Shown: in pieces, positions 1 through 54,260 of the stretch
How positions within the stretch are numbered: position 1 is the first letter of the stretch
Layout: the number at the start of each line of letters is the position of its first letter
Source: Halobacteriales archaeon QS_8_65_32
GTDB lineage: Archaea > Halobacteriota > Halobacteria > Halobacteriales > Halococcaceae
Reading direction: 5' to 3'
DNA: 56,593 nt
NCBI GenBank assembly: GCA_003022925.1
Contig: PXRY01000100.1
Span: forward strand, 28,111-84,703
Notes under the pieces: model-generated
The model's input: the letters and a program-made list of their open reading frames with translations, nothing else
Databases searched by the model: none
Told to the model about the DNA's origin: nothing
Translations under genes and position numbers: made by a program

Positions 1-200
1 AAGGTCCCGCTTGCAGCAAAAACGCTCCGCGTTTTTGCCACATTCACGAGAACTCCGTTCTCGTGAGTAAATTGGGAACTCTTCGAGTTCCCATTACATC
101 ACAAAGGACGCTTCGCGTCTTTCGAACGACAGCGAGCCCCCAAGCCGAGCGTGTCGGGGGCTTCCGAAACGGTCTCGGCGGTTCTTCCTCTGAAAGCTGC
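1..200 (+). repeat. Mosaic hairpin element, copy 1 (left part cut by window edge)
   Basis: Chain of short hairpins (GCAAAAACGCTCCGCGTTTTTGC, GAGAACTCCGTTCTC, GGGAACTCTTCGAGTTCCC, AAGGACGCTTCGCGTCTTT). It ends in the family right terminus AGCGAGCCCCCAAGCCGAGCGTGTCGGGGGCTTCCGAAACGGTCTCGGCGGTTCTTCCTCTGAAAGCTGC. Confidence 0.8.
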
Positions 201-298
201 TACACGAAATGCGACCGCCTCGGTCCTTCGGCGACTTCGACCCCGACGCCTCGTGGGGAAGCCGCGGGAGTTTTGCTCCGCCCGGACCTACCCCGAGT

Positions 299-5649: not shown

Positions 5650-5811
5650 CTGAATGTTCGTCGGTGCGGAGTCGTCGCTGTCGGTCGTCGATACGACGCG
5701 TCGAAAACGGTGACGCGGCTACGGACGTACTACCGCGGGTGCGACGCGCATATCGATACGAGACCGTCGGTGCTGATAAAACTTGGCGGTCGCAGCCCAG
5801 TAGTGTTCGAT

Positions 5812-6149
5812 GCAACAGTTTTCGAGAAGGGGGCCGCCGAGACCGTCTCGGAAGCCCCCGGACGCTCGACTCGGGGGGCTCGCTGCGCGCCTCGTCTCAC
5901 TCGCTGTGCTCGTTCGCCTGTCGTTCGAAAATCGAAGATTTTCGTGATGACAAGAGACGCTTCGCGTCTCTTGAACTACGGTGCTTACGTCGCCCGCCGT
6001 CGTCGAGCGGGAGGTCGGCTCCGCCGACCTCGGAATCCGTGGTCGTTCGAGAGAGCGGAACTCTCTCGTGATGAACGAAAGACGCCGGAGGCGTCTTTCG
6101 AACCACGGCGAAGCCACCACGCGCCCGGCCACTTCCAGTCCCACCCGAA
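5812..6149 (-). repeat. Mosaic hairpin element, copy 2
   Basis: The + strand starts with the reverse-complemented right terminus (GCAACAGTTTTCGAGAAGGGGGCCGCCGAGACCGTCTCGGAAGCCCCCG). Hairpins are AAGAGACGCTTCGCGTCTCTT, GAGAGAGCGGAACTCTCTC and GAAAGACGCCGGAGGCGTCTTTC. It ends with CGCCCGGCCACTTCCAGTCCCACCC, the reverse-complemented left terminus. Confidence 0.85.
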
Positions 6150-6230
6150 ACGGTATGCGACGGTCTTGGCTGCGTACTTGAACACCGCTGGTGAGTCCGG
6201 TGTCGGTGGCGATCGACCTGCAACCGTCGA

Positions 6231-22049: not shown

Positions 22050-22387
22050 AGAGCGGTACAGAGCGGTCGAAAGCCTCCGACACGCTCGACTTACGGAAGA
22101 CGGTCCTGCTCGCTCCCTGCGGTCGCTGTGCGGGCTGCGACTTCCGAACTCTCACTCGCTCACGCTGTTCGCTTGCGAGAATCGGGGGGCTCGCTGTCGT
22201 TCAAAAGACGCTTCGCATCTTTCATGAGTATTTACTCATGAAAACGGAGTTCTCGTGATGTTGTCAGAACACGAAGCGTTCTGACTGCGAGCGGGATCGA
22301 AGGTCCCGCACCGAACGAAAGACGTCGAAGGCGTCTTTCGAACCACGGCTACGCCGCCACGCAGTCGGCCCCTTTCAGTCCCGCCCC
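22050..22387 (-). repeat. Mosaic hairpin element, copy 3 (degenerate right terminus)
   Basis: Hairpins are AAAGACGCTTCGCATCTTT, CATGAGTATTTACTCATG, GTCAGAACACGAAGCGTTCTGAC, GCGGGATCGAAGGTCCCGC and GAAAGACGTCGAAGGCGTCTTTC. It ends with GGCCCCTTTCAGTCCCGCCCC, a left-terminus variant. Confidence 0.75.
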
Positions 22388-22714
22388 GTAGCGGTTGTTC
22401 GGCGGGCAATCGCGTAAGTCGACACCGCCGGCGGCGTTGACGTCTTCCGGCGAGTGAACTCGTGGGCTTCCGCTTGATTCGTGTCGCGACGGACGGCGAG
22501 CAGTGACCGCGGGCAATAACGGCAGAGCCGAACCGATCGGACACCAGCGGGCGTCCCGACGGCGTCCGTAACCCACCGCGCAGGTCGCATGGACGGAGCG
22601 GCGAAAGTGAAAGGTTCGACGGACGGAACCGGTCGGCAACCCGGGCGGAAACCGGGCGATGGATCACCCGTTACGAGCGTTTTATTCCGCCCCAGCCCCT
22701 CTTACCGGACGTCC

Positions 22715-31864: not shown

Positions 31865-31964
31865 ACGAATCTGGACCGCCCCGCAATACAGACGCAAATC
31901 ATCGGCAAGCCGTTCTCGAAAAACCGTGTTGACCTACGCATCTGCTCGTCAAACAACCGCAAGA

Positions 31965-32397
31965 GGCGGGACTGGAAGGGGCCGGGCGGTCACGGGCGCG
32001 AAGCGCCCGTGAGCTCGGGAGAGCTTCGCTCTCCCGTAGGTCGGCGAACCCCGGCGTTCACGAGAGCGAAGTGGTTCAAGAGAGCGGAACTCTCTTTTTA
32101 TGCCAAGAGATGCTTCGCGTCTCTCGTAGCACTCTCGTGAGCCAACAGGATCTCCCTGCGATCCTGTGACGACGCAAGCACGTGAGCGACTGAAAGGAGC
32201 GAACGCGCGCAGCGAGCCGCGGGTAGTCGTTCGAGAGAGCAAAGCTCTCTCGTGATGACGGGAGAACTCCGTTCTCCCGAACCACGCGGGACTCGAAGAG
32301 TCCCGCGGACCATGCGAACGGGCCTCCGGCCCGTGAGCAGAAGCCGAGCGGCCGGGGGCTTCCTAAACGGTCGCGGCAACTCTCTCGAAATAGCTCG
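31965..32397 (+). repeat. Mosaic hairpin element, copy 4 (longest)
   Basis: It starts GGCGGGACTGGAAGGGGCCGGGCGG. Hairpins are CACGGGCGCGAAGCGCCCGTG, GGGAGAGCTTCGCTCTCCC, GAGAGCGGAACTCTC, GAGATGCTTCGCGTCTC, CAGGATCTCCCTGCGATCCTG, GAGAGAGCAAAGCTCTCTC, GGGAGAACTCCGTTCTCCC, CGCGGGACTCGAAGAGTCCCGCG and GGGCCTCCGGCCC. It ends GCCGAGCGGCCGGGGGCTTCCTAAACGGTCGCGG. Confidence 0.9.
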
Positions 32398-32596
32398 ATC
32401 GAACACGACCCACTCAGCAGACAGAAGCGTTTTGTTCGTACCCGCGAAGATCGATGTAGTATGGAGACCCTTTTCCGCGGCGTCTGACGGGACTGGCCTC
32501 GCGTCCGACGCGGGTCATCGGCGTTCCGGCGGGTTTCGTCGGCTCGTTTTCCGGCTTTCGAGCGACCGCTCTCAACTACCCGACCCGCCATAACGA

Positions 32597-33947: not shown

Positions 33948-35885
33948 TCACTCGGCTTCGACGGCGTCGTCGAAGCCCATCGGTTCGGGGCCTGCTCCCT
34001 CGCGGCCGAGCGCCCGGCCGAGGTACAGCGCGGAGTTGATCAGGCCGATGTGGCTAAAGGCCTGTGGGAAGTTCCCCAGGTGTGTGCCTGTCTCGGGGTC
34101 GATCTCCTCAGCGAGCAGGCCCAGGGGGTTCGCGTAGGAGATCAGGCTCTCGAAGAGGTCGTGGGCCTCTTCGATCCGCCCCGAGAGGGTCAGCGCGTCG
34201 ACGAGCCAGAACGAACAGAGCACGAACGCGCCTTCCTCGCCCTCCAGGCCGTCCTCGCCGTCGTACCGGTAGACCAGCCCGTCGTCGCTGGTCAGGCCCT
34301 CGATGGTGGCGTCGATCGTCCCCTGCACCCGCCGGTCGTCGAACGGCAAGAAGCCGACGATCGGGAGCAGTAGTCCAGCCGCATCGAGGTCGTCACCGTC
34401 GAGCGTCCGGGTGAAACTGCCCTGCTCGCCGATCGACTCGTCGAACCCGCGATCGAGTACCGTCTCCCTGATCTCCTCGCGACACGCACGCCAGTCGTCG
34501 AGCGGCGCATCGAGGTCGTTCGAGGCGGCCATCTCGATGCCACGGTCGAGGGCGGCCCAGCACATCACCTTCGAGAAGACGAACTGTTTCGGGTTACAAC
34601 GGACTTCCCAGATACCCTCGTCGGGTTCGTCCCACACCTCCCGGGCGTGCTCGATGATTTCCCGTAGCGCGGGCCACTCGCTTGCGTCGAGGTCAGCGCC
34701 ACCGTTCGTCGTCTCGTGGGCAGCGATTAGGAGTTCGCCGAAGACGTCGAGTTGGCGCTGCTCGCGGGCGGCGTTGCCGACTCGTACCGGAGTCGACCCG
34801 CAGTACCCCGAGAGGTGATCGAGCTCCCGCTCAGTCAGATCGGTCTCGCCGTGGAGGCCGTAGAGCGGCTGGAGGTCGGCCGGATCGGTGTGACAGAGCC
34901 CCTGGAACCACTCGAAGAAGGCCCGTGCCTCGGCGCGATGGCCCAGGTTCGAAAGCGCCTGGATCGTAAAGGCACCGTCGCGCAGCCAGCTGAAGCGGTA
35001 GTCCCAATTACGTTCGCCGCCGATCTCCTCGGGCAACGACGTGGTCGGCGCGGCGGCGATCGCGCCTGACCCGTCGTGGGCGAGCAACTTGAGCACTAAC
35101 CCCGAGCGGGTCGTCAGGTCGTGCCACTGACCGTCGAAGACACAGTCGTGATCGCCGCAGTCGTGCGCCCACTCGCGCCAGTACTCGACAGTGTCGTCGA
35201 GACGGCGCTCCGGGTCGACCGGACCGTCGCGGTTAGTGGATGCGTCGGCGTCGACGCCAACGTCGACTGACCCGGCGTCGGCCGCTTCGGTCTCGCGATA
35301 CTGGAGCACGAACCACGCCGTCTGGCCGGCCGAGAGCGTCGTTCTAGCGGTCGCTACCCCGTCGTCGACGGTCCACTCGACCGAGGCGGAAAGCGACAGC
35401 GCCTCGCCGTCCGCACGGGCGCGAAGGCTCCCGTCGGCCGTATCGATCGTGTCGACCGTCGTTTCCGCCCGAGCGAAGTCGAGCCGGGGGGCGAACTCGA
35501 CGCCGATCTCGACTGCCCCAGCGGTGGCTTCGGCCTTTCGGTAGATCGCCCGCCGATCGTCGCTGCCGCCGGTATCGGTGCTTCCGTCGTCAACCGGCAT
35601 GAAGTCGGTGAGTCGAAGGGTACCCGTATCGGTCTCGAAGGTCGTTTCGAGCACGTTCGTTCGGTCGGCGTACGCCTGGCTCGACTCGAAGGAGCCCGTA
35701 GGACGTATCGAAAACGAGCCGCCCCGGTCGGCGTCGAGGATGGCGGCGAATACCCCGGCGGATTCGAGATGGGGAGCCGGGAACCAGTCGATCGAGCCGT
35801 CCCGGCTCACGAGGGCACAGCTCACCCCGTCGCCGACGAGGCCGTACCCGGCGATCGGCGTGTATTCGTGCCCGCTCTCGCTCAT
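33948..35885 (-). CDS. Glycoside hydrolase family 15 (glucoamylase/trehalase-like), paralog 1
   Basis: ATG 35885: MSESGHEYTPIAGYGLVGDGVSCALVSRDGSIDWF.. with the (alpha/alpha)6 core motifs ..NWDYRFSWLRDGAF.. and ..GNFPQAFSHIGLINSA. Confidence 0.88.
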   Translation of the reverse strand: MSESGHEYTPIAGYGLVGDGVSCALVSRDGSIDWFPAPHLESAGVFAAILDADRGGSFSIRPTGSFESSQAYADRTNVLETTFETDTGTLRLTDFMPVDDGSTDTGGSDDRRAIYRKAEATAGAVEIGVEFAPRLDFARAETTVDTIDTADGSLRARADGEALSLSASVEWTVDDGVATARTTLSAGQTAWFVLQYRETEAADAGSVDVGVDADASTNRDGPVDPERRLDDTVEYWREWAHDCGDHDCVFDGQWHDLTTRSGLVLKLLAHDGSGAIAAAPTTSLPEEIGGERNWDYRFSWLRDGAFTIQALSNLGHRAEARAFFEWFQGLCHTDPADLQPLYGLHGETDLTERELDHLSGYCGSTPVRVGNAAREQRQLDVFGELLIAAHETTNGGADLDASEWPALREIIEHAREVWDEPDEGIWEVRCNPKQFVFSKVMCWAALDRGIEMAASNDLDAPLDDWRACREEIRETVLDRGFDESIGEQGSFTRTLDGDDLDAAGLLLPIVGFLPFDDRRVQGTIDATIEGLTSDDGLVYRYDGEDGLEGEEGAFVLCSFWLVDALTLSGRIEEAHDLFESLISYANPLGLLAEEIDPETGTHLGNFPQAFSHIGLINSALYLGRALGREGAGPEPMGFDDAVEAE

Positions 35886-36122
35886 CGATTCGCCCCGCTG
35901 AGGTCGGTCGGGACGGCCGAGGCGCTCGGGGCGACCGGGGCCCACGCCGGAAGTGGGTCGGAAGTCGTCATCGATCCACGGAGGGGCTGAACGGGCGAAA
36001 AGCCTCCGGCGGTCGTGTGCCGTCGGTGCCGACGCGTCGGCGGCGATAGACGGTATGGGCAACGGACGGTGCGAGCGCGACGAATCGGCGTCGGACGTCG
36101 CGGCGAGTCGGCACCGGAGAAC

Positions 36123-38108
36123 TCAATCGGAGCGGCCCGACTCGCCGTCGGGGTCGCTCCCGTCGGTACCGATCGGCTCGACGGCGTAGTCGGTGTCCAC
36201 GCTGGGACCCGCGGGCTGTTCCACGTACCCGGATTCGAGCTGTGCCTCGCGGGCTTCGCTCAACAACAGCGCCGAGTTGATCAGGCCGATGTGGCTGAAT
36301 GCCTGCGGGAAGTTGCCCCGGCCTTCGCCGGTCTCGGGGTCGACCTCCTCCGCGAGCAACCCCAACGGACTCGCGAACGACACGACCGAGTCGAACAGTT
36401 CGGTCGCTTCCTCGATGCGGCCCGAGAGGGCGAGCGCGTCGACGAGCCAGAACGAACAGAGCACGAAGGGGTTGTCCTCGCCAGCGACGCCGTCAGGAGC
36501 GTCGTAGCGATAGACCAGCCCGTCGTCGGTCGCGAGCCGCGAGCGAACCGCGTCGATCGTCCCCTGGATCCGCCGGTCGTCGACGGACAAGAAGCCGACG
36601 ACCGGCAACAACAAGGCGGTGGCGTCGACCGCGGTGTCGGTCTCAAAGGTTCGGGTGAAACTGCCGTGGTCGCCGATCGCCGGATTGAACCCCGCTTCGA
36701 GCACCGTTTCCTTGATCTCCGCGCGGGTCTCGCGCCAAGCCCGTGTCGGGGCGTCGAAGCCCTGCTCGCGAGCCATTTCGATGCCACGGTCGAGGGCGGC
36801 CCAGCACATCACCTTCGAGAAGACGAACTGTCGCGGCTCGCTGCGGACCTCCCAGATGCTGCTTCCCGGCAGGTTCCAGACCTCGCGGGCGCGCTCGATC
36901 ACCCGGCGGACCGTTGCCCACGTTTCGGCTGAGAGGCCCTCGCCGCGCCGGGAGGTCTCGTAGACCGCGAGGACGAGTTCGCCGTAGACGTCGAGTTGGC
37001 GCTGGTCGCGGGCGGCGTTGCCGATCCTAACAGGGGCCGACCCGCGATAGCCCTCGAACCCGTCGAGGATCTCCTCGCCGACATCGGTTTCGCCGCGTAG
37101 GCCGTATAACGGGCGGTAGAGCGGCTGGTCCAAGCTCTCCGGATCGCCTTCAGCCAGGCCGAGACACCAGTCGAAGTAGCGTCTCGCTGCGTCGGTGTTG
37201 CCGAGGCGGTAGAGCGCCTGGACCGAAAAGGCGGCGTCGCGTAGCCAACTGAAGCGGTAATCCCAGTTGCGCACCCCGCCGATCTCCTCGGGTAGCGAGG
37301 TCGTCGGCGCGGCGGCGATCGCGCCGGTCCCGTAGTGGGTGAGCAGCTTGAGCACCAACCCCGAGCGCACTACGAGGTCGTACCGGGGACTGTCGAAAAC
37401 ACACTGGGAGGGGTGGGTACACCGACGCGCCCACGCGCGCCAGTAGCGGATCGTCCCCGCCAGGGCGGCCTCGTGCTCGGCGGGCGAGAGCGGATCGTGC
37501 GCGCCGTACTGGAGGGAAACGACCAGGTTCTCGCCCGCCGAAAGCGTGTGGGCCGCGTGCGCGGTATGATCCCGGGTCCAGCGGTCGCCGCCGTCGCCAT
37601 CGTCACCGTCGTCGATCGAGAAATCGAGCGGTGCCGACGCCGACAGGAAGAGGCGCTCGCCGTCCGCGCGGGCGACGACGCCGGCAGAAGTCGGTTCGAT
37701 CCCCGTCGCCGCCCGAGCGTAGTCGAACCGAGGGGCGAAGTCGACGGCGATGCCGACCGCGCCTTTCGTGCACTCGACCCGTCGGTAGATCGCTCGTGTC
37801 GGGAGTTCGGGCGTCCGTTCGTTATCCGTGACGGGCATGAAGTCCGTGAGCGTTATCCGGCCGGTCGGCGTCTCGAATTCGGTCTCTAAGACGTTCGTGC
37901 GGGAAACGTACGACTGCTCGCTCGCGTACTCGCCGGCCGGCCGAAGGGCGAAGTGTCCCCCGCGGTCGGTATCGAGGATCGCCGCGAAGACGCTCGGGGA
38001 GGCCAACTCCGGTACCGGAAACCAGTCGATCGAGCCGTCGCTGCCGACGAGCGAACACGTCTCTACGTTCCCGAGGAGGCCGTACTCCGCGAGCGGCGTA
38101 TATTCCAT
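36123..38108 (-). CDS. Glycoside hydrolase family 15, paralog 2
   Basis: ATG 38108: MEYTPLAEYGLLGNVETCSLVGSDGSIDWF.. with NWDYRFSWLRDAAF and GNFPQAFSHIGLINSA. Tandem with paralog 1. Confidence 0.88.
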   Translation of the reverse strand: MEYTPLAEYGLLGNVETCSLVGSDGSIDWFPVPELASPSVFAAILDTDRGGHFALRPAGEYASEQSYVSRTNVLETEFETPTGRITLTDFMPVTDNERTPELPTRAIYRRVECTKGAVGIAVDFAPRFDYARAATGIEPTSAGVVARADGERLFLSASAPLDFSIDDGDDGDGGDRWTRDHTAHAAHTLSAGENLVVSLQYGAHDPLSPAEHEAALAGTIRYWRAWARRCTHPSQCVFDSPRYDLVVRSGLVLKLLTHYGTGAIAAAPTTSLPEEIGGVRNWDYRFSWLRDAAFSVQALYRLGNTDAARRYFDWCLGLAEGDPESLDQPLYRPLYGLRGETDVGEEILDGFEGYRGSAPVRIGNAARDQRQLDVYGELVLAVYETSRRGEGLSAETWATVRRVIERAREVWNLPGSSIWEVRSEPRQFVFSKVMCWAALDRGIEMAREQGFDAPTRAWRETRAEIKETVLEAGFNPAIGDHGSFTRTFETDTAVDATALLLPVVGFLSVDDRRIQGTIDAVRSRLATDDGLVYRYDAPDGVAGEDNPFVLCSFWLVDALALSGRIEEATELFDSVVSFASPLGLLAEEVDPETGEGRGNFPQAFSHIGLINSALLLSEAREAQLESGYVEQPAGPSVDTDYAVEPIGTDGSDPDGESGRSD

Positions 38109-38354
38109 CTGGAGGGCTTCAGTAATAATGCGTACCTTCACTACATAAGGTTGTTGGCCGGTGTGAAAGTGGCACGTACGCCTAACCGTCAGTAGCCGGC
38201 GACTACCGGCGGTCGTATCGGCTGGGATCCGACGAGTATGAGTCCAGCGGTCAACGATTCGGTGTAACGGTCGTGTCGAGTGGCGGGGGCGCGACAAGGC
38301 AGAGCGAGCGGCAGCGGTACTAATCGGCCGGTGAGCGTTGCCACAGGCTGTACC

Positions 38355-38510
38355 GGGTGGGACTGGAAGCTCCCGGACGGTCGGCGAAGGCGGACGACGC
38401 GAGCACCGTAGGTGAGCGACGAAAGGGAACGAACCGAGGAGCGCAGCGAGGCCTCCGAGTTGATTCGTCCGGGGGCTTCCGAAACGATCCCAGCAGCTCG
38501 TTTCCCGAAG
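38355..38510 (+). repeat. Mosaic hairpin element, copy 5 (minimal: termini only)
   Basis: GGGTGGGACTGGAAGCTCCCGG...GTGAGCGACGAAAGGGAACGAACCGAGGAGCGCAGCGAGGCC..CCGGGGGCTTCCGAAACGATCCC. There are no internal hairpin cassettes. Confidence 0.7.
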
Positions 38511-38578
38511 ATTACGAACCGAGCACTACCCGGCCGACAGCGGAAACGGTTTTGCGCGCCGGGCGAGAAGGGGAAGCG

Positions 38579-39369: not shown

Positions 39370-39657
39370 ATGAACGACGATCGAACGGCGACGCGACGAC
39401 AGACGCTTCGTACTGCCGGACTGCTGGCGGTAGCAGGACTTGCCGGCTGTGCGGCTCCCAGCGGTGGCGGCGAAGGTGAGGGTGGAGGCGAAGGGGGCGG
39501 TGAAGGTGGCGGTGGCGAAGGCGGTGGGGGGGAAGGCGAGGGCGGCGGAGAAGGTGGTGAAGGCGGCGGTGGCGAAGGAGAGGGCGGTGAAGGTGGCGGC
39601 GAGGGTAGGGGCGGCGGATACGGCGGTGGGGAGGGAGAAGGCGGCGAGGGGGGCTGA
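39370..39657 (+). CDS. Tat-signal lipoprotein with Gly/Glu low-complexity mature region
   Basis: MNDDRTATRRQTLRTAGLLAVAGLAGC (twin-arginine motif plus lipobox), then about 65 residues made almost only of G and E. Confidence 0.6.
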   Translation: MNDDRTATRRQTLRTAGLLAVAGLAGCAAPSGGGEGEGGGEGGGEGGGGEGGGGEGEGGGEGGEGGGGEGEGGEGGGEGRGGGYGGGEGEGGEGG

Positions 39658-39684
39658 CCGATCGGTGGCGGCGTCGAGGGGCGC

Positions 39685-40903: not shown

Positions 40904-41147
40904 ATCGGGATAACCTCAACCTCAACCTCATAGGGAGTTCGTTTGCAACCCGGTTCATCGGTCACCGTCTCGGCGTCGTCAACGTCGCTTCAATCCCACA
41001 AAGAGTTCGTCTGTAACTCGGCACGGGGGTGATCGGCGATGACTGAACAAGCTTCGATCCCACAAGGAGGTCGTCCGTAACGCAGACAGAGATGTCTGGT
41101 TTCCGCATCGGATGCAGCTTCGATCCCACAAAGAGTTCGTCTGTAAC
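40847..41147 (-). CRISPR. Orphan CRISPR remnant: three good and two degenerate repeats, haloarchaeal type I-B-like
   Basis: The minus-strand repeat is GTTACAGACGAACTCTTTGTGGGATTGAAGC, at 40987-41017, 41051-41081 (variant) and 41117-41147. Degenerate copies lie at 40919-40949 (22/31) and 40847-40877 (3' half only). Spacers are 33-41 nt. Confidence 0.8.
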
Positions 41148-41327
41148 GATGCCAGATCCGCGAGGGACAGAGTCCGTATCCGTCGCTAGGTACATAGTGT
41201 TTCCGTCGACCTCCGATACCCAGCTCACCCCCGGGGAGTCGATGGAAACCAGTGGCTCGGACGGCCGAGGGTGATCGGACTCGCGTCCGGCGAGGATACA
41301 AATACCGGGATCGGAGCAAAACGTCTC

Positions 41328-42722: not shown

Positions 42723-42850
42723 AGTTCGAGAAGGGGCCAGGACCCGAAAGCGATTGCGATGATCGAAGTCCGAAACGTGCGAGCCCACTGCTGCGATGAT
42801 TGGATACACCGGGTGAACGGACACGCCCTGGCGAAGGTTGGGTTAGTTTA

Positions 42851-43197
42851 GCAGCTTTCAGGAAGATCCGCTGAGACCGTTTTAGAAGCCCCCGACCGCT
42901 CGGCTTCTGCTCATGGGCCGGAGGCCCGTTCGCATGGTCCGCGGGGCTCTTCGAGTCCCGCGTGGTTCGGGAGGACGGAGTTCTCCCGTCATCACGAGAG
43001 AGCTTTGCTCTCTCGAACGACTACCCGCGGCTCGCTGTCGTTCAAAAGGCCGCGCGAGGCGCGGCCTTTTGTGATGACGAAAGGCGCTTCGCGCTTTTCG
43101 TTATGCCGAGAGACGCGAAGCGTCTCTCGTAGCACTCTCCCGAGCTAACGGGCGCTTCGCGCCCGTGACCGCCCGGCCCCTTCCAGTCCCACCCGAA
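42851..43197 (-). repeat. Mosaic hairpin element, copy 6 (complete)
   Basis: The + strand begins GCAGCTTTCAGGAAGATCCGCTGAGACCGTTTTAGAAGCCCCCG (right terminus, reverse complement), holds 8 hairpins, and ends CGCCCGGCCCCTTCCAGTCCCACCCGAACC (left terminus, reverse complement). Confidence 0.9.
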
Positions 43198-43288
43198 CCG
43201 GTTCCGTCGGTTTTTATTGCCTAACCAGACACCGCCGTGGCGAACCGATACCTCATGGCGACGGCGACCGTTCGACGGGACAGCGACG

Positions 43289-51228: not shown

Positions 51229-51384
51229 CGGTCGAAGGGAGGAAACGCTCCGATACGGACCCGCTACGGCGATGCAAACGACCGGGAGCCGACACGGATA
51301 GGGGTCGAAAGTGACGATCGGCCTCGTCGCTCAGGCACGAGGGGCGGTGTTTAGTTGCGCGATGAAGACCGACGAGAACGGTTC

Positions 51385-51765
51385 GGGTGGGACCGGAAGG
51401 TGCCGACCGCTCGGCGTTCTTGTAAGCGAGTGGAACGAGCGAACGAGAGCTCGAAGGACGAGCGAAGCAAGTCCTTCGTAGAACCCCAGCGTTCTTGCGA
51501 GCGAGAGCAGGGAAGAACTTTGCTCCGACCGCGTTCGCGAGAACGAAGTGGTTCGAGAGAGCGGAGCTCTCTTGTCATGCCGAGAGACGCGAAGCGTCTC
51601 TCGTAGTACTCTCGTGAGCCAACAGGATCGCGGTGCGATCCTGTGATGACACAAGCACGTGAGCGATGAACGAACTAAAGGAGCGAGCGCGCGCAGCGAG
51701 CCGCAGGAGCCGAGCGCGTCGGGGGCTTTCAAAACGGTCTCGCCAGCTCTTCTCCTGAAAGTCGC
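51385..51765 (+). repeat. Mosaic hairpin element, copy 7
   Basis: It starts GGGTGGGACCGGAAGGTGCCG. Hairpins include GAAGGACGAGCGAAGCAAGTCCTTC, GAGAGAGCGGAGCTCTCTT, GAGAGACGCGAAGCGTCTCTC and CAGGATCGCGGTGCGATCCTG. The right arm is GTGAGCGATGAACGAACTAAAGGAGCGAGCGCGCGCAGCGAGCCGCAGGAGCCGAGCGCGTCGGGGGCTTTCAAAACGGTCTCG..CTGAAAGTCGC. Confidence 0.85.
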
Positions 51766-51794
51766 AAAAACGGCCAGCACGGAACAGCTAAGGG

Positions 51795-53701: not shown

Positions 53702-54046
53702 AGCGGTCGCTCACCCTCGCTCGGAACGATCGTCGTCCGCTTCTCGCGCTCCCCTCGTTCATTAGGGTCTCCGCTCGCATTCGCCGGTGACCGACGGGAC
53801 CCGCTGTGAACATTCGGTAGAGCGAACGCCGCGGTCACGGCGCGGGTACCCGGTTCCGCTCAGGTCGCCGGGTCGCTTCGGCCGCGCGTTCGGGCGATGG
53901 ACGAGTGCCTGTTCGAGCGGTTGCGCGCGGTCGACGGCGTGAAGTCAGCGCCCTGGCGGCCGCCCAACCGATGGGAACCCGGACGGAGCGATCGCGTAGA
54001 TGCGGCCGAGCGATAAGCGAGCGACGAACGCGACGAAAACCGGTCC

Positions 54047-54216
54047 GGGTGGGACTGGAAGGGGTCGGGCGCGCGGCGGCTTCGCCGTAGTTCGAAAGAC
54101 ACCCTCGGCGTCTTTCGTTCAGTGCGGGACCGAAGGTCCCGCTCGCAGTCAGAACGCTTCGCGTTCTGACCACATTCACGAGAACGGAGTTCTCGTCTCA
54201 GCAACCCTCTCAGAAG
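54047..54216 (+). repeat. Mosaic hairpin element, copy 8 (lacks canonical right terminus; abuts tRNA-Ser)
   Basis: It starts GGGTGGGACTGGAAGGGGTCGGGCGCG. Hairpins are GAAAGACACCCTCGGCGTCTTTC, GCGGGACCGAAGGTCCCGC, GTCAGAACGCTTCGCGTTCTGAC and GAGAACGGAGTTCTC. It ends 45 nt from the tRNA-Ser 3' end. Confidence 0.8.
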
Positions 54217-54260
54217 GAGTTAATAAACACTACCAGTTCACGAACACGAAAACTCGGAAG

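Follow-up and report, generated by a model that had tools for sequence, protein, structure and literature searches.

The DNA analysed here, referred to as the window, is a 56,593-nt stretch of a contig from Halobacteriales archaeon QS_8_65_32. It is haloarchaeal in character, with a G+C content of 65.8% and with genes for TFB, tRNA-Ser, and tRNA-Tyr. Spread along these 56.6 kb are eight copies of one non-coding element (copies 1 to 8, labelled E1 to E8), which occur in both orientations and are intergenic in every case. Most of them lie between divergent genes, and copies 7 and 8 lie between convergent genes. The limits of the copies were drawn from the alignment between copies, and those of copy 8 also from the consensus of the terminal repeats. 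So delimited, the copies measure 220–490 nt and sum to 2.65 kb, or about 5% of the window, and gene calling on contigs of related strains placed no gene inside an element. An earlier note, made from the letters of the DNA, had singled out part of copy 8 (positions 54047–54216) and had proposed that compensatory stem changes and loop inversion between copies reflect selection on secondary structure.

In the organism of the window, the interior of the element is an array of perfect palindromes of 8–13 bp, closed by a C-G pair and centred on GAA/TTC or GGA/TCC. Triloop hairpins with perfect stems of at least 8 bp number 21 in the 2.65 kb of element DNA vs 3 in the other 53.9 kb, an enrichment of about 140-fold. 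The closing pair is 5'-C...G-3' in every loop read, 19 of the 23 element loops are GAA, TTC, GGA, or TCC, and each cassette carries a d(C-GNA-G) centre on one strand or the other. The heptamer GCGNAGC or its complement is about 10-fold enriched. Mini-hairpins of DNA with d(GNA) triloops and a C-G closing pair are described as exceptionally stable (PMC3201870, PMC13037366). Neither strand is preferred: in the sense of the element, 9 loops are of the purine type and 10 of the pyrimidine type. Some 24 mismatches were counted over about 39 hairpins and 380 pairs; 17 of them are of the transition type, divided in element sense into 11 A.C and 6 G.T (p = 0.33), again with no strand bias.

At least 15 different stem sequences are arranged in fixed collinear arrays, and they have no head motif in common. 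Two of the recurrent strings are far more frequent than expected, the 15-nt anchor CACATTCACGAGAAC (2 occurrences vs 0.06 expected) and GAAAGAC..GTCTTTC (3 vs 0 expected). The loops of the latter hairpin had been described earlier as unrelated, a description that does not hold. In copies 2, 3, and 8 it is one and the same 11-bp stem, CGAAAGACGCC/GGCGTCTTTCG, with a single mismatch each in copies 3 and 8 and with the triloops TCC, TTC, and CTC when read in the orientation of the element; the copy 8 hairpin at 54093–54117 is homologous to those at 6076–6100 and 22316–22340.

The behaviour of these hairpins in populations was followed on 17 contigs from closely related populations, found by exact-protein look-ups in the ENA assemblies ERZ27230146-60, three JGI metagenomes, and one Logan run. 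In long aligned blocks these contigs are 98.5–100% identical to the window, and polymorphisms were counted in aligned stretches with at least 97% identity to it. Exact inversion of the loop was found in 15 of 132 hairpin comparisons and affects 9 of the 35 window hairpins. Further flips concern a tenth hairpin, at 42995 in copy 6, which has TTT in the window but GAA or TTC in the other strains, and two hairpins that are absent from the window. The changes are of the types TTC<->GAA, TCC<->GGA, and GAG<->CTC within perfect arms of 8–13 bp, such that the changed segment is the exact reverse complement of the original and is flanked by inverted repeats, the signature of a template switch or small inversion. 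Point mutation cannot give such a pattern, which is the mark of a palindrome-dependent process at the DNA level.

Both loop states are found in independent ENA, JGI, and Logan assemblies. The flagged loop of copy 1 is TCC in four assemblies and GGA in two, and that of copy 8 is GGA in three and TCC in three. The earlier observation that this loop is inverted between copies 1 and 8 is thus right in that GGA and TCC are exact reverse complements, but the difference is not fixed: both loci carry both states among strains, and the contrast between the two copies is a sampling accident. A single-nucleotide polymorphism at position 54029 and the loop state of copy 8 occur in all four combinations within 160 bp, which therefore requires recurrent flipping or recombination.

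Loops stand apart from all other sites in the comparison of the window with its orthologous copies. Mismatches per site amount to 0.66% outside elements, 1.27% in element DNA outside hairpins, 1.13% in stems, and 14.5% in loops. Loop sites thus differ at 22 times the background rate, and most of the excess is exact inversion. Segregating sites follow a similar course (1.9% outside elements, 2.8% in unpaired element DNA, 4.3% in stems, and 34% in loops). All 20 stem variants at the strain level are one-sided and 16 of these 20 are singletons, a share that does not differ significantly from the 61–67% found elsewhere. Stems are therefore unprotected at the population level.

Between copies, by contrast with the strains, the two arms of a stem do change together. 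The alignments are small, with about 6 independent paralogues per cassette, and the statements below are made within that limit. The long copies split into two collinear subfamilies: type A comprises E1, E3, E8, part of E2, and a copy on contig L039, and type B comprises E4, E6, E7, and copies on L102, L019, and L040. In the type A alignment (6 sequences) 97% of the cells are paired, and double-sided changes affect 9 pairs vs 2.4 +/- 1.2 after shuffling, with none of 500 shuffles reaching 9 and with slid controls giving 0–2. The left two hairpins of type B are paired in 95% of the cells and show 10 cells with double-sided changes vs 3.7 in shuffles (0/500); four compensated pairs separate the E4 type from the L019 type, and the L040 copy has a symmetric deletion of 1 bp in both arms. 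The stem adjacent to the two arms varies across core copies from different genomes (CGGCTCG/CGAGCCG, CCGTCTCGGC/GCCGAGACGG, CGTCTTGAC/GTCAAGACG, and GCGCTGGAGCGAT/ATCGCTCCAGCG). It is complementary throughout, and arms of the same copy pair better than arms taken from different copies (0/5000 permutations). The covariation term of RNAalifold is slightly unfavourable (+1.9) because one-sided changes are also common. Since pairing is kept while the sequence of the stems drifts, the rejection of neutral decay made in the earlier note holds, with double-sided changes above both shuffled and slid controls.

The comparison of copies 1 and 8 from which that note started was checked by direct reading. 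The hairpins at 16–38 and 54148–54170 have the quoted sequences (Table 1) and are followed by CACATTCACGAGAAC-TCC-GTTCTCG in copy 1 and CACATTCACGAGAAC-GGA-GTTCTCG in copy 8; in the latter, the spacer CACAT leads to (TC)ACGAGAAC-GGA-GTTCTCGT, and copy 1 has the same spacer. The three differences on the 5' arm are each matched by a complementary change on the 3' arm, as stated, so that three compensated pairs distinguish the two hairpins. The 170 nt flagged in copy 8 fold more stably than expected, with z-scores of -3.5 for plus-strand RNA, -4.6 for plus-strand DNA, and -5.7 for minus-strand RNA.

The right end of copy 8 was described less accurately. Where a truncated copy had been suggested, there is an internal deletion of 111 nt that left the last 38 nt of the element in place, including the right terminal repeat AAACACTACC at 54225–54234. 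This deletion was seen in the window genome only, and all 5 informative strain contigs have the full version: L106, L107, and L122 span the copy at full length, and L108 and L109 run into the extra segment. The segment consists of the hairpins GGGAACTC-GGA-GAGTTCCC and AAAAGGCCGCGC-GAG-GCGCGGCCTTTT and the canonical right arm, the deletion having removed two hairpins and most of that arm. At full length, copy 8 is collinear with copy 1 throughout (82% identity). With its end at 54234, the copy stops 25 nt short of the 3' end of tRNA-Ser and not 45 nt as given before. An insertion next to the tRNA had been suggested as an alternative. Insertion targeted to tRNA genes was ruled out, as only one of the eight copies adjoins a tRNA and none lies near tRNA-Tyr.

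Table 1. Copies of the element in the window and hairpins of copies 1 and 8 (positions in the window)
Feature	Position	Strand	Remarks
Copy 1 (E1)	1..216	+	Cut by window start
E1 hairpin GCAAAAACGC-TCC-GCGTTTTTGC	16-38		
E1 hairpin TCACGAGAAC-TCC-GTTCTCGTGA	44-66		Loop polymorphic among strains
Copy 2 (E2)	5799..6188	-	Complete; clear terminal inverted repeats; two loops flip among strains
Copy 3 (E3)	22180..22420	-	Collinear with copies 1 and 8; without right arm
Copy 4 (E4)	31922..32408	+	Complete, about 490 nt, 8 hairpins; three loops flip
Copy 5 (E5)	38310..38532	+	Core form, without hairpin cassettes
Copy 6 (E6)	42842..43240	-	Loops at 43043 and 43107 exactly inverted relative to window in some strains
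Copy 7 (E7)	51342..51790	+	Loops vary by other multi-base changes, not exact inversion
Copy 8 (E8)	53995..54234	+	Start approximate, left end degenerate
E8 conserved left arm GGGTGGGACTGGAAGGGGTCGGGCG	54047..54071	+	
E8 hairpin CGAAAGACACC-CTC-GGCGTCTTTCG	54093..54117	+	11-bp stem, one A.C mismatch
E8 hairpin GCGGGACC-GAA-GGTCCCGC	54124..54142	+	One-sided C>T in one strain
E8 hairpin GTCAGAACGC-TTC-GCGTTCTGAC	54148..54170	+	Identical in all 7 assemblies covering this hairpin
E8 hairpin ACGAGAAC-GGA-GTTCTCGT	54178..54196	+	Loop GGA or TCC among strains
E8 deletion junction	54196..54197	+	111 nt internal; 2-nt GT microhomology
E8 retained right-arm tail and right terminal inverted repeat	54197..54234	+	

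The element as a whole is bounded by terminal inverted repeats (TIRs) with the consensus GGTAGTGTTCAGAT...ATCTGAACACTACC, which close 10 copies from several metagenome-assembled genomes (MAGs). The left repeat varies as GG(T/C)(A/G)GTGTTCAGAT, with its partner ATCTGAACACTACC located 120–270 nt away in ten copies. Within the window, the ends of copy 2 read AGTAGTGTTCGA...TTGAACACCGCT, and the terminal repeats are degenerate in some copies, the left end of copy 8 among them. Inside the ends, copies with intact termini have a common left arm GGGTGGGACTGGAAGGGGCCGG and a common right arm CCGGGGGCTTCCGAAACGGTC...; alignment with copies from other genomes indicates that the element reaches about 45 nt outward of each conserved arm. 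The left arm GGGTGGGACTGGAAGGGGTCGGGCG is present in window copies 2–8. Three size classes were distinguished: a minimal class of about 125 nt with fused arms, a core class of about 220 nt exemplified by copy 5, and a long class with 4–9 hairpin cassettes that is common in the organism of the window. As a side observation, the left arm GGGTGGGACTGGAAGGGGCCGGG at 54047–54069, found also in copies 4 and 6, fits by eye the consensus of a G-quadruplex, with four G runs of at least 3 and loops of 1, 7, and 2 nt. Together, the left and right arm make up an imperfect inverted repeat in subterminal position (GGAAG...CCGG / CCGG...CTTCC), which encloses a G-rich internal loop.

Genomes were scanned with an 18-mer of the left arm. 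The matches listed are mostly chance bacterial ones and do not include the source genome, but among them are at least about 20 Halobacteriales loci with the arm, with copies of the element in the Halobacteriales MAGs QS_9_67_17, QH_7_66_36, QH_2_65_14, and QH_6_64_20 as well as in Halomarina oriensis, Halobellus salinus, and Saliphagus infecundisoli. A scan of metagenomes with the 21-mer left arm gave 8 matches, of which one (contig L112) is the element and the others are chance hits in protein-coding DNA; the same kind of scan with the anchor plus the second hairpin (CACATTCACGAGAACNNNGTTCTCG) gave none. The plasmid database yielded a single weak match of 37 nt in Halobaculum, and the two matches among viral contigs were both due to chance. 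At the gathering score of Rfam 15, the two tRNAs are the only matches in the window, and nothing credible appeared on any element at E-values up to 5. In the searchable literature no account of the element was found by name, topic, or sequence string, and this repeat family appears to be undescribed so far. Its general kind is known, that of a non-coding mobile repeat bounded by TIRs with a lifestyle like that of the repetitive extragenic palindromic (REP) sequences and bacterial interspersed mosaic elements (BIMEs), although the density of hairpins and the flipping at the population level are unusual.

Mobility of the element is suggested by its copy number and distribution. Direct repeats that would indicate a target-site duplication were not found beside the terminal repeats of the 10 copies, where a duplication of 1–2 bp is still possible since the exact boundaries are unfixed. 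In the fetched loci no transposase gene is flanked by a pair of terminal repeats, the spacing of the pairs being 120–270 nt and in one case 780 nt. The Y1 transposase family is absent from the Pfam lists of genes called across the strain contigs of the window, and no presence/absence polymorphism of the element was seen among these contigs. An origin as a palindromic element derived from IS200/IS605 (palindrome-associated transposable element, PATE) or as a TnpB guide RNA was ruled out by the TIRs and by the lack of a match to such RNA families. In the MAG QH_7_66_36 (L039, 1745–2122), two copies are oriented head to head, with about 100 nt between their left arms. Possibly the element inserts close to existing copies or targets them.

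The repeat also leaves its mark on assemblies. Nearly all metagenome contigs of the related population end inside an element (L108, L109, L119–L121, and L123–L130) or span one by a scaffold gap of 100 N (L122, 8077–8176), and the repeat is a main reason why assemblies of this organism are fragmented. A seeming loss of about 1 kb at copy 7 in L122 was rejected, as it corresponds to this gap of 100 N.

With moderate confidence, we attribute both features of the hairpins to template switching at the DNA level, which would keep the palindromes perfect and flip their centres. The palindrome would fold into a hairpin or cruciform during replication, and the nascent strand would swap template and copy the opposite arm. 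Depending on the switch, the 3-nt centre would be inverted or one arm would be overwritten with the complement of the other, and the arms would thereby evolve together. The process would probably start with a stable GNA mini-hairpin that folds on whichever strand carries GNA and so nucleates the fold-back. Single events of template switching within hairpins are documented to invert loops, to make compensatory changes of several bases, and to generate new perfect stems (PMC8794818), and small inversions at hairpins occur pervasively in chloroplast DNA (PMC12371153). Because template switching makes both types of change, compensated stems and inverted loops need no selection, and we think that they are two outputs of one mutational process. 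In rough estimates, a hairpin flips at about 9 times the rate at which a site in the elements is substituted, and a correction rate of about 30 times the element substitution rate is needed to hold mismatches at the observed 6% or so of pairs. The two rates agree in order of magnitude, and a switch that stays within a perfect stem is invisible. We infer that template switching could suffice to keep the stems perfect without selection. On the same moderate footing, and as one joint claim with template switching, the copy 8 region is taken to be a copy of a high-copy, TIR-bounded, non-coding mobile repeat of Halobacteriales that resembles a miniature inverted-repeat transposable element (MITE) or a "small mobile repeat".

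Several points weigh against this interpretation. A simple inversion moves a mismatch to the other side of the stem and does not repair it, so that repair needs asymmetric switches. Compensated multi-base stem changes were seen between paralogues only (3 pairs between copies 1 and 8, and 4 pairs between the E4 and L019 types) and may have arisen in single events; none was caught among the strains, and arm-to-arm correction is therefore something that we infer, not something observed. The 80% share of singletons among stem variants would also fit weak purifying selection, and the restriction of loops to the GNA/TNC set may point to a constraint on foldability. The alignments comprise only about 6 independent paralogues per cassette. 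To our knowledge, template switching has not been studied in haloarchaea.

Selection for DNA foldability, given that loops are kept in the GNA/TNC set, is a serious rival, even if we consider it unlikely. In this scenario the palindromes are needed as single-stranded hairpins or as cruciforms driven by supercoiling, for mobilisation of the element or for use by the host in protein binding, absorption of supercoils, or pausing of replication, and flipping is a tolerated by-product. Such host uses have been proposed for bacterial REP/BIME sequences. The nearly invariant G(A/G)A loops on one strand, C-G-closed and thus of the most stable DNA mini-hairpin motif, agree with this scenario, as do the strand symmetry of the constraint, which duplex or cruciform DNA would give, the retention of pairing across genera, and the DNA fold z-score of -4.6. 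It is harder to reconcile with stems that are at least as polymorphic among strains as unpaired element DNA, and with the loss of cassettes and arms without obvious cost, as in the 111-nt deletion, a 60-nt indel, and the cassette-free core and minimal copies; moreover, neither a partner protein nor a transposase turned up in the fetched loci. The earlier proposal of selection on secondary structure thus stands as far as pairing is kept beyond chance and structured single-stranded DNA is a viable reading, but its version in terms of structured RNA is unsupported, in view of the flips, the unprotected stems, the missing strand bias, and the empty Rfam search.

This RNA version is the least supported form of selection, and we regard it as quite improbable. 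It would have the elements transcribed with their neighbours or as small RNAs, the hairpins serving as 3'-end stabilisers, terminators, processing sites, or protein-binding sites. Covariation above controls and strong RNA folding on both strands are in line with it, and so are the position of copies 7 and 8 between convergent genes and the T runs at the end of some stems, one of which has grown from T5 to T8 in one strain of copy 1. Yet both orientations occur among the elements, most of which are flanked by divergent genes, their loops interchange freely between GAA and UUC types, which are not equivalent in RNA, and mismatches have no G.U strand bias (11 vs 6, p = 0.33). Stable RNA hairpins typically have tetraloops, whereas triloops predominate here. 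Terminator-like sites are not enriched, with 9 sites vs 9.7 expected in the consensus scan and zero in elements, and, as regards a role of L7Ae, no kink-turn-like motif was seen in a look by eye. The slightly unfavourable RNAalifold term and the tolerated deletion of two hairpins and most of a right arm add to these difficulties. The remaining explanation, that flips are errors of metagenome assembly at palindromes and compensated pairs are coincidences in decaying repeats, strikes us as barely credible. The comparison sequences are indeed mostly short-read metagenome assemblies that break at these repeats, and in one case what seemed a 1-kb deletion was a scaffold gap. With 19–29 nt, however, the hairpins are much shorter than k, which is 119 according to the ENA contig names, so that a flipped path needs reads with the flipped centre and both flanks, and each loop state recurs in independent ENA, JGI, and Logan assemblies. 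At about 1% divergence, point mutation is expected to turn three neighbouring bases into their exact reverse complement at roughly 1e-7 per hairpin, and chance pairing is rejected by the enrichment, the shuffles, the slides, and the permutations.

Among described categories, the nearest is that of the MITEs together with the "small mobile repeats" (SMRs) of Haloquadratum. The SMRs of Haloquadratum walsbyi are transposase-free, have TIRs and no target duplication, and are unrelated to known transposons (PMC3119063). Like MITEs and SMRs, the element is short (below about 600 bp), non-coding, TIR-bounded, and dispersed in many intergenic copies, and a target-site duplication, one of the marks of MITEs, is not evident. 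As with SMRs, for which no related transposase is known, none was found for the element in the fetched loci. Its sequence may be unrelated to those of the HqIRS families of Haloquadratum. The element differs from both groups in that its family spans several Halobacteriales lineages, in that its interior is a variable array of mini-palindromes, and in that its subterminal arms are more conserved than its terminal repeats.

In lifestyle the element resembles the REP/BIME, REPIN, BOX, RUP, and Correia sequences, which are also high-copy intergenic mosaics of short palindromes in both orientations, keep their potential to form hairpins while the sequence drifts, and may act as single-stranded DNA or RNA. 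REP/BIME and REPIN elements are mobilised by RAYT transposases, whereas no RAYT or IS200-type gene lies near the element on the strain contigs of the window. Further differences are that the element is archaeal, that its array is bounded by TIRs, and that its stems are diverse with uniform C-G-closed GNA/TNC triloop centres, in place of the one conserved imperfect palindrome of 20–40 nt with a GTAG head that characterizes REP sequences and recurs there singly or in inverted doublets.

At the level of mutation, the closest parallels are the template-switch mutations in hairpins (Monttinen & Loytynoja 2022, PMC8794818) and the small chloroplast DNA inversions at hairpins (Kelchner & Wendel 1996, as cited in PMC12371153). 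The exact replacement of loops by their reverse complement between inverted arms, the multi-base compensated stem changes, and the recurrence of events among close relatives in conflict with nearby markers are common to all. The loops of the element are just 3 nt long, however, and events are dense, with about one quarter of the element hairpins polymorphic among contigs 97–100% identical to the window. The setting also differs, being a mobile repeat of a polyploid archaeon and not rRNA genes, microRNA genes, or plastid spacers. Most cassette centres read C-G(A/G)A-G on one strand, many of them exactly GCGAAGC, and thereby resemble the d(GCGNAGC) mini-hairpins (PMC13037366, PMC3201870). The known cases of these are oligonucleotides and a few viral or promoter sites, whereas in the element the motif heads genomic palindromes of 8–13 bp and switches strand by inversion.

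Two-sided stem changes are usually taken as proof of functional RNA structure; here they stand beside direct population evidence of DNA-level rewriting, so that searches for RNAs by covariation call for care in archaeal genomes rich in repeats. The repeat provides dozens of hairpins per 50 kb, and probably hundreds per genome, in a polyploid archaeon that can be cultured. How far template switching makes and keeps perfect stems, a matter of long debate, could be measured there directly. A bolder possibility, to which we give little credence, is that haloarchaea carry genome-wide mobile arrays of cruciform-prone d(C-GNA-G) mini-hairpins whose centres invert at about ten times the per-site substitution rate, as a DNA-level archaeal counterpart of REP/BIME that is kept and used. 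If so, the arrays could serve, for example, as supercoil sinks, as hot spots of replication or recombination, or as stochastic switches, and they would offer a natural system in which to watch template switching create and maintain perfect stems.

Smaller changes were noted in individual copies. In copy 4, L118 (9594–9653) has an extra 60 nt relative to window positions 32054–32069, flanked by the direct repeat GCGTTC and resembling a segment of copy 7 (51490–51545); cassette content thus differs between strains through repeat-mediated indels. In copy 1, the T5 run in the 3' arm GCGTTTTTGC of the hairpin at 16–38 is T8 in L126, and in L128 a T in place of the G that follows the run extends it to T7. 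This instability in length and base unbalances the stem, and oligo-T tracts, which are the archaeal termination signal, arise on both strands. Also in copy 1, TTGGGAACTC at 73–75 is changed to TC-AGAACTC in three strains, which yields TCAGAAC as in the neighbouring hairpin family. In copy 7, at 51632–51635, the loop GGT is CCT in one strain and GGTG is GACA in another. These clustered changes in copies 1 and 7 are not simple inversions and look like templated complex mutations.

Three further features of the window lie outside the elements. Four degenerate direct repeats of about 30 nt, spaced by 64–68 nt, occupy positions 40922–41151. On the minus strand they read like the haloarchaeal type I-B CRISPR repeat (GTTACAGACGAACTCTTTGTGGGATTGA...) and match Rfam CRISPR-DR24 below threshold (30.8 and 25.1 bits). 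This stretch lies in a gap of about 700 nt without genes and has the look of a small orphan CRISPR array that has decayed. At 39451–39677 there is a long imperfect repeat with a period of 9–24 nt, made up of GGN/GAA codons that would be Gly/Glu-rich if translated, its coding status being uncertain. Finally, the minus strand of 33948–38105 carries two tandem paralogous genes of the glycoside-hydrolase-15 (trehalase-like) type, with 74–82% identity at the DNA level.

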